Positions 47,216-56,200 of a DNA stretch of 64,000 bases are shown here, one piece after another. This DNA is from a plasmid. Position 1 is the stretch's first letter; every line of letters starts with the position of its first letter. The DNA lies in assembly GCF_058153355.1 (NCBI RefSeq), contig NZ_JBLWLY010000002.1, one strand, 5' to 3'. Position numbers: made by a program.

Positions 47216-50200
47216 TAACGAAAGTATCTTAGCGGGCATGAAAATGGCAAATAACGGTTAAAAATCGTGGCGTTGACACTGCTGACGAGGGCTTATCCCT
47301 GTCCGCCGCTGACACCACGTATACCAGCCGCTGTGGGCCACCCGGAGCACGCGGCACATTGCCTTGATGCTGAACCCAGCCTGATGTTTTTCAATAAAGA
47401 CATACTTCATTTCAGGCGCTTCGTAAAGTATGTCGCGGCCTTTTGGAGGATAGCCAGTTCCTCTGCCTGCTCCGCCAGTTGCCGCTTCAGGCGGGCATTT
47501 TCAGCGGCCAGTTCACTTTCACGCTCAGACGAGGTCATCTGTTGCTGCAGTTTGCTGCGCGTAAGCGTCTTATCAGGACCGTCTGGCAAATTCCCGATGC
47601 TTTGGACAAAGTATCCACCACTAAATTAATAGTGGGTGATAAAAATGTCAGATATACAAAAAAATGCCTCTCCGGGAAGTAATGCCAGTCAGTTAAGCAA
47701 CTGACTGGCTCTTTTTCGGGGCTGTGGGGTATTTCCAGGGCCTCTCCTTTACCACTCTCGGGAAGGCCCTTTCCCTTCTTGTCGGTAATTTCACAAGTTG
47801 TCCCATACTTGCAAGATCGCGCATCAGCTCCGGTATACGTCCCGGTGAAGCGCCCTGCAATGTCATCAGCATTCTCATCACCATTCCGCATGATTCTGAG
47901 AAACTCAGTTGATTCGGCCAGTAACCTTTCAGATGTTCCGCCATTTTAATCATCTGATATCTCACCAGATTATAAGCCAGTAAGACACCCCACAGCTCTT
48001 GCTCCACAAGCTCCGGCTTTTTACTTCTCAGCGTCAGCCTGCTCAGTTGCATCGTCTGTTTTATCTCCCTGTATCCCAGTTCGATTTCCCAGCGATGACT
48101 GTACAGATCCGCCATTTCTCCTCCGGGGAAGCGCATGGCGTCCGTCATCGACGTCAGCAGATGGCAGACTTTTCCTTTGCGCGTCACGGTCAGCAGGCGG
48201 GCTGTCACTTCATTTCCCAGTCCCGGCCACTTTTTTCGTGCCTGCGGGCTGGTTTTCAGCTTCACCAGATGATCGCCTTTACCCAGTTTTCTGATCTCTT
48301 CATATTGCGCTCCCTTTCTGAGAGGTATCATCCAGTGGCGGTGTTCTCCCGCCAGGCTCCAGGCATTTAACAGTCCCAGTGAGTAATAACCTTTATCCAT
48401 TAACGTCAGAGTGTTATCGCCGGTTTGTTCTATAAGTTGCTCAGCAAGCTCATTTTCGCTGTTCTTCATCGTGCCGAAGGCTGCAGCCGTCAGCAGATGG
48501 CTGGTCAGTTCCATCTGGCAGACCATTTTGACCTGCGGGTAGAGCGCCGGGTTCCCGGCATGTGTCTGGCGGGGGAAGGCTGCATCGTTCTCTGGTGTAT
48601 CCGGTGTGCGCCAGAACACACCATCGATGGCCAGCAGGGTCAGGCCGCACCAGTGCGGATGCGGCGTGGCGTTATGCCAGAGCTGCGCTGTTTTCGTGAA
48701 CACGCGGCGGACAGCCTCACTTCCCAGGCGCTGGCGGGCCTGAATAACGGCACTGGGGGCAACGAAGGGGCGATTGCCCGGCAGCATGATGTCCAGGCGA
48801 TTCACAATCTGGTGAAGAGGTTCTTTACGCTCAAGCGCCATGCCAACAATACACCAGACCATCATTTCGAGGGGAAGACGGCGCTTGCGTAGCGTTACAG
48901 TACCTGATTCGGCAAGGCAACGAGAGATGAGTTCGGGGTCGAGGTAATCCCCCAGAGAAGTCAGTGGGTTACGCAGAGAATCGTAACGGGATACCAGATC
49001 AAGAGCCTGTCCAATGTGCATAAAAAAATCCGGAAACAAGTGAGCGTTTCCGGATTCTTACACAGCCACTGGATCGGTCAACTGATCCTTAACTGATCGG
49101 CATTACTCTCCGGGAAGGCCTAAAGGGTGCCTGAATTATCCTCCTGAATTCAAACAACGACTCATAGAAGCATCATTCCAGCCAGGTGTTTCAATTTCCA
49201 GACTGGCCCTGGACAATGGTATTAATGCCAATCTGTTGTTCAAATGGCGTCAGAAATGGCGGCAGGGGAAGATAAAATTGCCATCATCAGAATCAGGCAG
49301 AGAATCTCAGTTAATTCCTGTCACTATTGATGCCCAACTCCCAACTGCTCCGGCTAATGAGCCACTGACCGCAAGACCGTCAGTAACACCGGAAATACAC
49401 AGCATCTCCTGTGAGATTACGTTCAGAAACGGCACCCTTCGGTTGAACGGGGCAGTGAATGAAAATCTGCTGTCCTTGCTTATACAGGAGCTGAGACGGT
49501 GATATCTCTCCCTGCAGGTTCGCGTATCTGGCTGGTTGCAGGTATCACCGATATGCGAAATGGCTTTAACGGCCTGGCCTCAAAAGTTCAGAACGTCCTG
49601 AAGGATGACCCGTTCTCCGGACACCTGTTCATCTTCCGCGGACGCCGGGGTGACCAGATAAAAGTGCTGTGGGCTGACAGCGACGGACTGTGCCTCTTCA
49701 CCAGACGCCTGGAACGGGGCCGCTTCGTCTGGCCGGTCACCCGTGACGGCAAGGTGCACCTTACTCCGGCCCAGTTATCCATGCTTCTTGAGGGCATCGA
49801 CTGGAAACACCCGAAACGAACGGAACGCGCTGGCATCCGCATATAACCCGTTGTAAAGTGAGGATATGGACACCTCACTTGCTCATGAGAATGCCCGCCT
49901 GCGGGCACTGTTGCAGACGCAACAGGACACCATCCGCCAGATGGCGAAATACAACCGCCTGCTCTCACAGCGGGTGGCGGCTTATGCTTCCGAAATCAAC
50001 CGGCTGAAGGCGCTGGTTGCAAAACTGCAGCGCATGCAGTTCGGTAAAAGCTCAGAAAAACTTCGTGCAAAAACCGAACGGCAGATACAGGAAGCACAGG
50101 AGCGAATCAGCGCTCTTCAGGAAGAAATGGCGGAAACGCTGGGTGAGCAATATGACCCGGTACTGCCATCTCCCCTGCGCCAGTCTTCAGCCCGTAAACC

Positions 50201-53200: not shown

Positions 53201-56200
53201 TATTCTGCCGGATTCGTACAACGCCCGGTAACCACCGTAAGCATCGGCCTGAAGCACTCCGCTGTAACCGGCCAGATGATTCTGTGGATGGATACCTTTC
53301 CGGTCCGGGCTGTACGCGAACCAGACCGCCGGAGGCATTTCCGAACCGGCGTTACGGTCATCACGAACGTAGACCCACAGCCGGGCAGTCCTTGTTTTAC
53401 CGCTGCCCGGCTCCTGGACCGGAACGGGGATATCATCGGCATGGACTTTACCGGGCATCAGCACATACTGGCGCAGGATGTCATACAGCGGTTCCAGCAG
53501 TTCAGCAACAGCACCTGTCCAGCGCCCCAGTGTGGCACGGCTCAGCTCCACGCCCTGACGACGGTATATTTCTGACTGGCGGTATAACGGCAGATGGTCT
53601 GCATATTTTCCAGCGACAACATGGGCCAGAAGCCCCGCTCCGGCATAACTGCGTGCAATGGGTTTTGAAGGCACCGGAGCCTGCACGATATGGTCGCACC
53701 GGCAACAGGCCAGTTTCGGACGTTGTGTTTCGATAACCTTAAAGGCGCTGCTGATAAGCTCCAGTTGCTCTGACACATCACATCCCAGAGAACTGAGTTC
53801 GCCACCACAGGCCGGGCAGCATTCCTCTTCCGGACGGATGACCCGGGTTTCACGGGGAAGTGAGGCAGGTAACGGTTTACGGGCTGAAGACTGGCGCAGG
53901 GGAGATGGCAGTACCGGGTCATATTGCTCACCCAGCGTTTCCGCCATTTCTTCCTGAAGAGCGCTGATTCGCTCCTGTGCTTCCTGTATCTGCCGTTCGG
54001 TTTTTGCACGAAGTTTTTCTGAGCTTTTACCGAACTGCATGCGCTGCAGTTTTGCAACCAGCGCCTTCAGCCGGTTGATTTCGGAAGCATAAGCCGCCAC
54101 CCGCTGTGAGAGCAGGCGGTTGTATTTCGCCATCTGGCGGATGGTGTCCTGTTGCGTCTGCAACAGTGCCCGCAGGCGGGCATTCTCATGAGCAAGTGAG
54201 GTGTCCATATCCTCACTTTACAACGGGTTATATGCGGATGCCAGCGCGTTCCGTTCGTTTCGGGTGTTTCCAGTCGATGCCCTCAAGAAGCATGGATAAC
54301 TGGGCCGGAGTAAGGTGCACCTTGCCGTCACGGGTGACCGGCCAGACGAAGCGGCCCCGTTCCAGGCGTCTGGTGAAGAGGCACAGTCCGTCGCTGTCAG
54401 CCCACAGCACTTTTATCTGGTCACCCCGGCGTCCGCGGAAGATGAACAGGTGTCCGGAGAACGGGTCATCCTTCAGGACGTTCTGAACTTTTGAGGCCAG
54501 GCCGTTAAAGCCATTTCGCATATCGGTGATACCTGCAACCAGCCAGATACGCGAACCTGCAGGGAGAGATATCACCGTCTCAGCTCCTGTATAAGCAAGG
54601 ACAGCAGATTTTCATTCACTGCCCCGTTCAACCGAAGGGTGCCGTTTCTGAACGTAATCTCACAGGAGATGCTGTGTATTTCCGGTGTTACTGACGGTCT
54701 TGCGGTCAGTGGCTCATTAGCCGGAGCAGTTGGGAGTTGGGCATCAATAGTGACAGGAATTAACTGAGATTCTCTGCCTGATTCTGATGATGGCAATTTT
54801 ATCTTCCCCTGCCGCCATTTCTGACGCCATTTGAACAACAGATTGGCATTAATACCATTGTCCAGGGCCAGTCTGGAAATTGAAACACCTGGCTGGAATG
54901 ATGCTTCTATGAGTCGTTGTTTGAATTCAGGAGGATAATTCAGGCACCCTTTAGGCCTTCCCGGAGAGGCATTTTTTTGTATATCTGACATTTTTATCAC
55001 CCACTATTAATTTAGTGGTGGATACTTTGTCCAAAGCATCGGGAATTTGCCAGACGGTCCTGATAAGACGCTTACGTTTCACCTTTCTCGGATATGACTT
55101 CAAAGTGCGTACGCTGAAGAATTTCAAAGGCGAACTGTACCGAAAATGCATGCCGGGTGCGTCAAATGCAGCAATGCGCAAAATAACAGAAACAATCAAG
55201 AAGTGGCGTATACATCGCTCAACAGCTGAGAGTTTGCTGGATTTTGCGAGGCGCTACAATGCGATAGTGAGAGGCTGGATCGAGTACTACGGAAAGTTCT
55301 GGTCCAGAAATTTCAACTATCGACTGTGGAGTGCAATGCAGTCACGTCTGCTCAAGTGGATGCAGTCTAAATACAGACTTTCGAACCGGAAGGCTCAGCG
55401 AAAGCTGACGCTGGTAAGGAAGGAGTATCCGAAGCTATTTGTTCACTGGTATTTACTACGTGCATCAAATGAGTGATCAAGAGCCGTATGACGCGAGAGT
55501 GTCACGTACGGTTCCGTGAGCAGCCGGGGAGTGAAATTCTCTCCGGCTGACTCGACTCGCAGGTTCCGACAGCGGTGGCGAACATGCGGCGGTGTTGTAC
55601 TCGCTGATCGGCACATGCCGTCTGAACAATGTGGGGCCAGAAAAATGGCTGCGTTACGTCATTGAGCATATCCAGGACTGGCCGGCAAACCGGGTACGCG
55701 ATCTGTTGCCCTGGAAAGTTGATCTGAGCTCTCAGTAAATATCAATACGGTTCTGGCGAGCCGCTTACGCACTAACTGTAGTCTGAGTAGATAAAGACGG
55801 AGTAAGAGCAGCCACCGGTTCTTTCGGCTCATCCGGCGTTATCTCCACAGGTAATAATTCAACGCCAGTGTCAGAAGAGGTTGTTACCGGAAGACGCCGC
55901 GATATGCGCCCTTCGTTCTGCCAGAGCCTGAGCCATTTGAACAGCAGATTGGCGTTAATGCCATTTTCAAGAGCAAGTTTTGAGATGGATACCCCGGATT
56001 CACAGGAGGCAGAAACGAGCTGCTGTTTAAATTCGGGAGGATCATTAGGGCAGCCTTTTCGCCTGCCGGGAGTCACATTTTTCTGCATATCTGACACTTT
56101 GGTTCCCACTACTTATTTGGTGGACACCACTTTGTCTAATTCGTCAGATTCTGACCAGACGGTTCAGGCTGTACGCTTCCCCATGTGATTTGCCTCGCCA

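Follow-up and report, generated by a model that had tools for sequence, protein, structure and literature searches.

Members of the IS66 family have imperfect terminal inverted repeats that start with GTAAGCG, while IS4 is an element of about 1.43 kb with terminal repeats and a target duplication of 11–13 bp. Inverted IS pairs of the Tn5 and Tn10 type are stably maintained. The group II intron E.c.I3, named by Leclercq and Cordaux (2012; PMC3522654), homes into IS679, and fragments of it occur on Shigella virulence plasmids, including the 5′-truncated copy E.c.I3-tr2. The copy E.c.I3-2b of E. coli 536 is 1824 nt long (NC_008253, 4007952–4009775; PMC3522654, Table S3). On the Shigella virulence plasmid pINV, deletions between homologous IS pairs (ISSfl4 and IS1294) removed the T3SS island (Pilla et al. 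2017; PMC5629016).

The window analysed here comprises 64,000 nt of a plasmid contig (NZ_JBLWLY010000002.1). It contains an 8.2-kb block in which two IS66-family copies, A and B, form a long inverted repeat around part of E.c.I3 (Table 1). On this Shigella-type virulence plasmid, of the pINV type, the inverted repeat very probably arose as a side effect when three known mobile elements inserted one within another. Copy A would have been in place beside the icsA region when E.c.I3 entered it by retrohoming into its usual site in tnpC. Copy B, a second and intact element of the same rare IS66 variant, would then have reached the reverse transcriptase ORF of the intron by simple insertion, landing in the orientation opposite to A and with an 8-bp target duplication. 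Because E.c.I3 lies within the tnpC gene of copy A and itself holds copy B, the inverted repeat derives from nested insertion, which leaves roughly 2.2 kb of the two copies opposed on either side of the 5′ half of the intron. This order of events (A, intron, B) is the most likely one; the insertion of IS4 into tnpA of copy A stands outside it. The identities and limits of the elements, their target duplications, the vacant B site in relatives and the common homing site are direct observations; the order of insertion, entry by retrohoming and any exchange between the arms are inferred.

Table 1. Mobile elements and repeat components of the locus (positions in the window)
Feature	Coordinates	Strand	Description
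Copy A	47561–55768	+	Disrupted IS66-family element; own sequence 47561–47679, 49118–51255 and 55557–55768
Copy A left end	47561–47679	+	Left terminal repeat GTAAGCGTCTTATCAGG..., start of tnpA; 100% complementary to copy B 54957–55075
IS4	47680–49105	-	1426 bp; termini TAATGCC...GGCATTA; in tnpA of copy A; transposase ORF 47693–49039
Left arm	49106–51255	+	Middle of copy A: tnpA 3′ remnant, tnpB 49499–49846, tnpC codons 1–463 (from 49866)
Spacer	51256–52818	none	1563 nt: E.c.I3 5′ part (51256–52606) and right-end 212 nt of copy B (52607–52818)
E.c.I3 5′ part	51256–52606	+	Starts GTGTG; domains D1–D4a; N-terminal reverse transcriptase part from ATG 51767; ends with octamer GTTTCACC
Copy B	52607–55075	-	2469 bp, intact; tnpA 54572–55000, tnpB 54228–54575, tnpC 52637–54208
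Right arm	52819–54968	-	Equivalent segment of copy B (repeat search)
E.c.I3 3′ part	55076–55556	+	Second octamer 55076–55083; C-terminal maturase to 55476; domains V–VI; ends ...CTCGAC
Copy A right end (3′ exon)	55557–55768	+	tnpC codons 464–523, stop codon, right terminal repeat; complementary to 52607–52818
ISEc8-like left-end fragment	55769–56178	-	Separate IS66-family element abutting copy A (context)

A repeat search returned the two arms as an inverted repeat of 2150 nt that is 100% complementary, with the arms 1563 nt apart. The inverted repeat itself is thus confirmed as real, a chance origin being excluded for 2150 nt at 100% complementarity. The original prediction, of two mirror-image IS66-family copies in opposite orientation, agrees with this result, and its coordinates for copy A (49106–51255) coincide exactly with the left arm. 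Copy B had been placed at 52680–54991, which is roughly the right location but has the wrong limits for both the perfect arm (52819–54968) and the whole element (52607–55075). The 1.35-kb spacer that had been proposed equals the 5′ part of the intron (51256–52606; 1351 nt) and is shorter than the distance between the perfect arms. That distance is 1563 nt because copy B ends in 212 nt without a counterpart next to them; the matching stretch, with seven mismatches, is 55557–55768, past the intron. The mirrored antisense ORFs reported for the two copies are present (196, 141, 126 and 99 aa in each arm), a trivial observation. Beyond IS4, a further 119 nt form a perfect inverted repeat (47561–47679 with 54957–55075), and the initial 12 nt of the left arm are the IS4 target duplication. 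The earlier description omitted the position of copy B inside the intron with its 8-bp duplication, the position of the intron in tnpC of copy A, and the extension of copy A on both sides.

Of copies A and B, only B is intact. Its three ORFs are those of the IS66 family, with Pfam matches to HTH_Tnp_1 (tnpA), to TnpB_IS66 and to DDE_Tnp_IS66 together with zf-IS66, LZ_Tnp_IS66 and DDE_Tnp_IS66_C; NCBIfam model NF033517 scores 479 bits (cut-off 180) and the TnpA model NF047595 also matches. The termini are imperfect inverted repeats of the IS66 type (GTAAGCG.../...CGCTTAC; left GTAAGCGTCTTATCAGGACCG, right GTAAGCGGCTCGCCAGAACCG), which match at 17 of their first 22 positions, and the element is flanked by a direct 8-bp duplication, as in this family, of GTTTCACC (52599–52606 and 55076–55083). 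The octamer is single-copy in relatives, meaning that the site of copy B is unoccupied there. No identical source copy of B was found in PLSDB or among complete E. coli genomes. Relatives on E. albertii plasmids (e.g. NZ_CP070285.2) share the tnpA/tnpB/tnpC content, the GTAAGCG termini, an 8-bp duplication (GAATAAGG in that case) and the length of 2469 bp, but identity between copy B and the E. albertii element is just 95.8%, the highest value that full-length relatives of the A/B type reach elsewhere. ISCro1-like copies, by contrast, match copy B at no more than 97% and only from tnpB onwards, owing to a different left 500 nt, the part with the short tnpA.

Copy A is dead. When its three pieces are joined they amount to 2469 nt, with the same length and ORFs as copy B, and the left arm still gives Pfam matches to TnpB_IS66, DDE_Tnp_IS66, zf-IS66 and LZ_Tnp_IS66. 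Although both ends are present, IS4 and the intron break up the element, whose flanks do not match: TGCTGCGC on the left and GCACTAAC on the right, with no target duplication. This lack of a duplication indicates at least one rearrangement or recombination in the past of copy A that falls outside the simple nested model. The interrupting IS4 has the transposase type (Pfam Nterm_IS4 and DDE_Tnp_1; NCBIfam NF033592, 304 bits), size and terminal repeats of that element, together with a 12-bp target duplication, CTCTCCGGGAAG, at 47668–47679 and 49106–49117. It is 99.65% identical to IS4 of S. flexneri pINV. On the other side of the locus, the outer end of the ISEc8-like fragment overlaps the conserved icsA-side backbone of pINV, which begins at about 56162.

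E.c.I3 spans 51256–55556 on the plus strand, with copy B inside it. Identification of the spacer as the 5′ part of an intron, as first proposed, is borne out by Rfam model RF01999 (D1–D4; 51329–51445, 91.9 bits) and by an RVT_1 match in the ORF at 51767–52633. Correspondingly, the 3′ part contains a GIIM match (Pfam) and RF00029 (domains V–VI; 55479–55556, 57.1 bits), both Rfam scores lying above the gathering score. The intron begins with GTGTG and finishes with GAC, in agreement with the 5′ GUGYG and 3′ AY ends of the ribozyme. Excising copy B and one octamer in silico reconstructs an intron of 1824 nt with an uninterrupted reverse transcriptase/maturase of 410 aa, which matches TIGR04416 at 393.9 bits (cut-off 300) in addition to RVT_1 and GIIM. 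The intron is therefore split but otherwise complete, and it has been without a functional maturase of its own since the insertion of copy B. With the maturase lost and the ribozyme domains intact, splicing would need the intron protein in trans.

The reconstructed intron is 98.96% identical to E.c.I3-2b over 1824 nt without gaps, lies at the same homing site in an IS66-family tnpC, and has an identical 40-nt 5′ exon; the identical exon–intron junction is also present in one E. coli chromosome and one plasmid. When exact matches were sought for the last 30 exon nt, no convincing EBS1 or EBS2 partner emerged. Over its 5′ part, the intron is 99.6–99.7% identical to the E.c.I3 copy of pINV, and two standard pINVs carry the intron with the site of copy B empty and a single octamer. 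Unlike E.c.I3-tr2, the present intron has both ends complete and occupies a different plasmid locus, beside the icsA region. E.c.I3-tr2 was considered as a pINV-resident donor of intron and flank and rejected: the intron is 99.6% identical, but the 3′ exon differs from that of copy A at 7 of 212 positions. The present copy is further set apart from its relatives by the IS66 element that splits it at intron positions 1344–1351, a site left unoccupied in every relative examined.

Differences between A and B are unevenly distributed. All 2257 nt upstream of the intron are free of them, and seven fall within the next 110 nt (all at 55561–55666), six of which are synonymous, while the last 102 nt are common to both copies. 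The cluster 3′ of the intron looks like a recombination patch, and the uneven distribution indicates a degree of homologous recombination with a further IS66 allele. At the seven sites, states are mixed among other IS66 copies (six loci) and the full-length E. albertii relative, and they do not indicate which copy changed. It is possible, though unlikely, that the arms are identical because of gene conversion after the arrival of B and not because of recency, copy A having started out as a divergent allele and conversion having stopped at the heterology of the intron. The abrupt change from 0 to 7 differences at the intron would fit such a tract, as would the synonymous nature of most of the differences, which is expected for allelic variation more than for decay, and the arms share only about 96% identity with other IS66 copies that carry the intron. 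However, the rare left end, the short tnpA and the last 102 nt are common to A and B, which implies that A was already of the same IS type as B, a type whose full-length relatives elsewhere do not exceed 95.8%. A conversion tract would also need to include the 119 nt beyond IS4, and the states at the seven sites are silent on its direction.

An assembly artefact, whether a mis-join caused by the repeats or a spurious second IS66, with truly one copy or some other arrangement, is very unlikely. Linkage across the 2.15-kb identical arms, which are beyond short-read span, depends on the assembly together with internal consistency, and an artefact would account both for arms that are 100% identical over 2150 nt and for an arrangement that recurs in no other record of PLSDB, RefSeq E. 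coli, GTDB representatives or JGI metagenomes. Specifically, PLSDB has no record linking IS4, arm and intron or linking intron and B; none of the complete RefSeq E. coli genomes links IS4, arm and intron (the query being this linkage and not that of intron and B); and the exact 34-nt intron/B junction was not found in GTDB representative genomes or JGI metagenomes. Nevertheless, exact IS termini with a direct 8-bp duplication would not result from a mis-join, nor would one leave an intron whose reconstruction comes to exactly 1824 nt with its ORF undisturbed. Of the two spacer orientations, only the observed one pairs the duplication of B and co-orients both the intron halves and the halves of A. 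Furthermore, the seven differences retained in the 212-nt repeat imply that polishing did not indiscriminately make the copies alike.

Two special mechanisms may be considered alongside simple nesting and are, taken together, highly improbable: that IS66-family elements insert preferentially into E.c.I3, disabling it, or beside sister copies; or that E.c.I3 entered copy A not by retrohoming but through recombination at the DNA level, with co-conversion of the flank, of which the 110-nt patch would be the trace. If either were true, the locus would record a conflict or an exchange between insertion sequence and intron.

Intramolecular replicative transposition, in which B would have arisen from A with inversion of the intervening segment, is very improbable, although the copies are close, inverted and identical over their shared 2269 nt. 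In duplicative inversion, each copy ends up with one part of the target duplication, the parts lying in inverted orientation, and the DNA between the copies is inverted. Here, in contrast, both octamers flank B directly, the 5′ and 3′ halves of the intron are co-oriented, and A already had the intron whereas B is without it. Equally hard to credit is a ground state in the other isomer, from which inversion between the arms produced the observed one: 2 kb of perfect inverted homology is a good RecA substrate, and IS pairs on pINV are known to serve as recombination substrates (PMC5629016), but flipping 51256–52818 would split the ends of B, unpair its duplication and oppose the intron halves, and simple insertions account for the observed state. 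The direct duplication surrounding B is the reason for rejecting both of these readings.

With its two inverted copies of one IS and kilobase-scale arms and spacer, the locus resembles the layout of the composite transposons Tn5 and Tn10. It differs from them in having no cargo gene, a spacer that is an intron fragment, and one copy that has been disrupted three times, and it arises from nesting and not from two insertions around a gene. The outer flanks, moreover, carry no matching duplication, and the pair is accordingly not a composite transposon.

The locus produced by nested insertion is an ordinary pile-up of already known mobile elements, a fresh instance of a familiar phenomenon that leaves knowledge of these element families unchanged. 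For annotation, what appear to be two IS66 fragments and two intron fragments become a disrupted IS66 element (A), a split but otherwise complete E.c.I3, an intact IS66 element (B) and IS4. The clustered differences between A and B illustrate cleanly, on a small scale, how IS copies recombine with one another. The sequenced orientation is that expected from simple insertions. The instability proposed in the original prediction is a generic expectation for long inverted repeats; with a spacer of 1.56 kb, hairpin or cruciform events are unlikely, and RecA-dependent inversion is plausible. Like the IS pairs described by Pilla et al. (PMC5629016), A and B are homologous copies on an IS-rich virulence plasmid and potential recombination substrates. 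Unlike those deletion-forming pairs, they are inverted and 1.6 kb apart, such that recombination between the arms would do no more than flip the 1.56-kb intron fragment, leaving icsA and other virulence genes in place.

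An IS66-family inverted repeat, as proposed in the original prediction, was confirmed by a repeat search of the window, which returned perfect arms at 49106–51255 and 52819–54968 (2150 nt, 100% complementary, with 1563 nt between them). Copy A had been placed exactly, whereas the coordinates of copy B and the spacer length of 1.35 kb were only approximate. The same two elements form a second, perfect inverted pair (47560–47679 and 54957–55076) and a third with 97% identity (52606–52818 and 55557–55769). The mirrored antisense ORFs are real and occur in both arms (196, 141, 126 and 99 aa), as a trivial outcome of the duplicated arms. 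The parts had been named correctly but incompletely; four known mobile elements, IS66-type copy A, group II intron E.c.I3, IS66-type copy B and IS4, are nested one in another to produce the repeat.

Features of the repeat block and the adjoining icsA region
Feature	Position	Strand	Basis or remark
Copy A, IS66-family, interrupted	47561–47679 + 49118–51255 + 55557–55768	plus	junction reading
IS4 in copy A tnpA	47680–49105		1426 bp, 12-bp duplication CTCTCCGGGAAG
Group II intron E.c.I3, split by copy B	51256–55556	plus	Rfam, Pfam, junction reading
Copy B, IS66-family, intact	52607–55075	minus	2469 bp, junction reading
Copy B tnpC, intact	52637–54208	minus	Pfam and NCBIfam IS66-family matches
Copy B tnpB, intact	54228–54575	minus	Pfam and NCBIfam IS66-family matches
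Copy B tnpA, intact	54572–55000	minus	Pfam and NCBIfam IS66-family matches
icsA	56743–60051	minus	
RnaG sRNA	60070–60189		Rfam RF02550, 158.5 bits

The window derives from an invasion plasmid (pINV) of the Shigella/EIEC type. RnaG adjoins the 5′ end of icsA, as expected for pINV. The conserved backbone on the icsA side starts at ~56162, and all sequence to the left of this point varies among plasmids. Many pINVs in PLSDB (2024 release) match the mxi-spa-ipa entry region (20000–44900) over 99% of its length, the closest being EIEC, S. boydii and S. dysenteriae plasmids. The best of these records reaches only 99.3% identity, and the pINV lineage of the window is therefore absent from that release.

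The homing target of E.c.I3 is IS679, a member of the IS66 family, and fragments of the intron are present on the Shigella virulence plasmid (Leclercq & Cordaux, PMC3522654). In the window, E.c.I3 is inserted after the first base of codon 464 of copy A tnpC. Rfam detects intron domains D1–D4 at 51329–51445 and domains V–VI at 55479–55556, and Pfam finds RVT_1 in an ORF at 51767–52633 and the maturase domain GIIM in an ORF at 55015–55476. Excising copy B and one octamer restores an 1824-nt intron with a single unbroken 410-aa ORF, to which the group II RT/maturase model TIGR04416 gives 394 bits (cut-off 300). The rebuilt intron aligns without gaps to E.c.I3-2b (NC_008253 4007952–4009775, 1824 nt; PMC3522654 Table S3) at 98.96% identity, with 19 differences. 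The 40-nt 5′ exon is identical to that of E.c.I3-2b, and the same exon–intron junction occurs in another E. coli chromosome (L005) and an E. coli plasmid (H81). E.c.I3-tr2 (pSD1_197, NC_007607 29397–31222; PMC3522654) overlaps a 99.6% match (H111). A different group II intron 5′ end lies at 63421–64000, cut by the window end (Rfam RF01999 at 63481–63599), downstream of an IS3-family frameshift pseudoknot (ALIL, 62241–62357). This second intron probably belongs to the E.c.I4 type and lies within a gene for an IS3-like transposase, a combination described in PMC3522654.

Copy B is bounded by termini GTAAGCG...CGCTTAC, whose terminal repeats agree at 17 of the first 22 positions, and is bracketed by a direct 8-bp duplication, GTTTCACC (52599–52606 and 55076–55083). 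In the standard pINVs of S. flexneri Y394 (L006) and S. dysenteriae BU53M1 (L007), the intron lacks its first 36 nt and runs unbroken across the insertion point, with a single GTTTCACC. The site was empty in all relatives examined, which is direct evidence that copy B inserted later.

The simplest history is that copy A was present, that E.c.I3 would then have retrohomed into its tnpC, and that copy B would have entered the RT ORF of the intron in reverse orientation by simple insertion; IS4 entered copy A tnpA too and may have done so at any stage. A repeat-induced mis-join (the original prediction counted assembly errors among the risks of such long inverted repeats) is disfavoured by the assembled arrangement itself. 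A derived flip of 51256–52818 splits the ends of copy B, unpairs its duplication and sets the intron halves opposed, and the sequenced orientation is thus the ground state. A duplicative inversion, produced by replicative transposition within one molecule, is excluded, as both octamers directly flank copy B and the intron halves are co-oriented.

Simple nesting leaves three features unexplained. The first is the missing target duplication of copy A: its pieces, once joined, give 2469 nt and the ORF set of copy B, and the flanks, TGCTGCGC and GCACTAAC, do not match. The left flank (47553–47560) belongs to a 283-nt stretch of unrelated DNA that adjoins an IS21-like element (45147–47278), and the right end abuts a left-end fragment of an ISEc8-like element (55769–56178) that is 99.5% identical, inverted, to window 3846–4027. 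These foreign flanks and the lack of a duplication require either a rearrangement at the left end of copy A or a recombination event involving two IS66 copies.

The second is the clustering of the seven differences between the copies, all at IS positions 2262–2367, corresponding to 3′ exon positions +5 to +110 (55561–55666 in A, 52709–52814 in B). Upstream of the intron the copies are identical over 2257 nt, as they are over their last 102 nt (0/2359 nt outside the 110 nt just 3′ of the intron site), and such clustering has p ~3e-10 under uniform scatter by our own arithmetic. Only one change alters the protein (G490E) and the other six are synonymous, which fits allelic variation imported by recombination rather than local decay. 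This patch, the locus's one mildly unusual feature, looks like a short, sharply bounded recombination or gene-conversion tract beside the intron. States at the seven sites are mixed across other IS66 copies, so that either A or B may have been the converted copy. The pINV-resident E.c.I3-tr2 exon was ruled out as donor (7/212 differences).

IS4 also occupies the homologous spot of a strongly diverged IS66-family tnpA in S. flexneri pINV-Y394 (L004, 7881–9306; window, 47668–49117). The tnpA flanking that IS4 is only ~50% identical to the window's, and the 12-bp duplications differ (CTCTCCGGGAAG versus CCCCGGCGGCCT/CACCGGCGGCCT). IS4 is likewise found beside ISCro1-like elements in many E. coli chromosomes. 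Taken together, these cases suggest an IS4 insertion hot spot within IS66 tnpA.

The third feature left unexplained by simple nesting is the rarity of this 2469-bp IS type, which departs from ISCro1 in the leftmost 500 nt and in having a short tnpA. Full-length relatives were found only in E. albertii plasmids (95.8% identity, flanked by an 8-bp duplication of their own), and there was no full-length copy among 5,426 complete E. coli genomes. This rarity indicates that copy B probably came from a further copy within the same host and, with the 99.3% best match of the entry region, that the lineage is unrepresented in those collections.

No PLSDB record joined IS4, arm and intron, and none contained the intron/B junction. 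Complete RefSeq E. coli genomes were queried for the IS4–arm–intron linkage instead of the intron/B junction, and none had it; GTDB representative genomes and JGI metagenomes gave no exact match to the intron/B junction. Near icsA, EIEC plasmid CP091385.1 and S. dysenteriae pINVs (L002) carry combinations of IS66 copies and E.c.I3 fragments that are related to this one but not the same. The arrangement is new to the searched databases; its kind is well known, and such mosaics are the rule on this IS-rich plasmid.

Copy A would no longer supply active TnpA or TnpC, and copy B is the sole intact copy of the pair. Because copy B parts the RT domain from the X domain, the intron maturase has presumably been lost. 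Copy B interrupts domain IV within its ORF region and leaves intact the ribozyme parts that Rfam detects, so that splicing would depend on intron protein supplied in trans. The E.c.I3 homing site of copy B (52779–52858) is unoccupied and stands 1.5 kb from the disabled intron. Over 40 nt, the 5′ exon of this site is the same as at occupied sites; over the first 40 nt on the 3′ side, it departs from copy A at +5, +11, +23 and +32.

RecA-dependent recombination between the 2.15-kb perfect arms would flip the 1.56-kb spacer and link the IS4-bearing left part of copy A to the right end of copy B, leaving no fully intact IS copy. Cruciform or hairpin (SbcCD-type) instability requires short spacers, and Tn5 and Tn10 are stable although their inverted IS arms are comparable and their spacers likewise measure kilobases. 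Recombination between IS pairs is documented on pINV, and the published events are deletions between homologous IS pairs (PMC5629016), whereas recombination between the arms described here would delete nothing and would leave icsA untouched.
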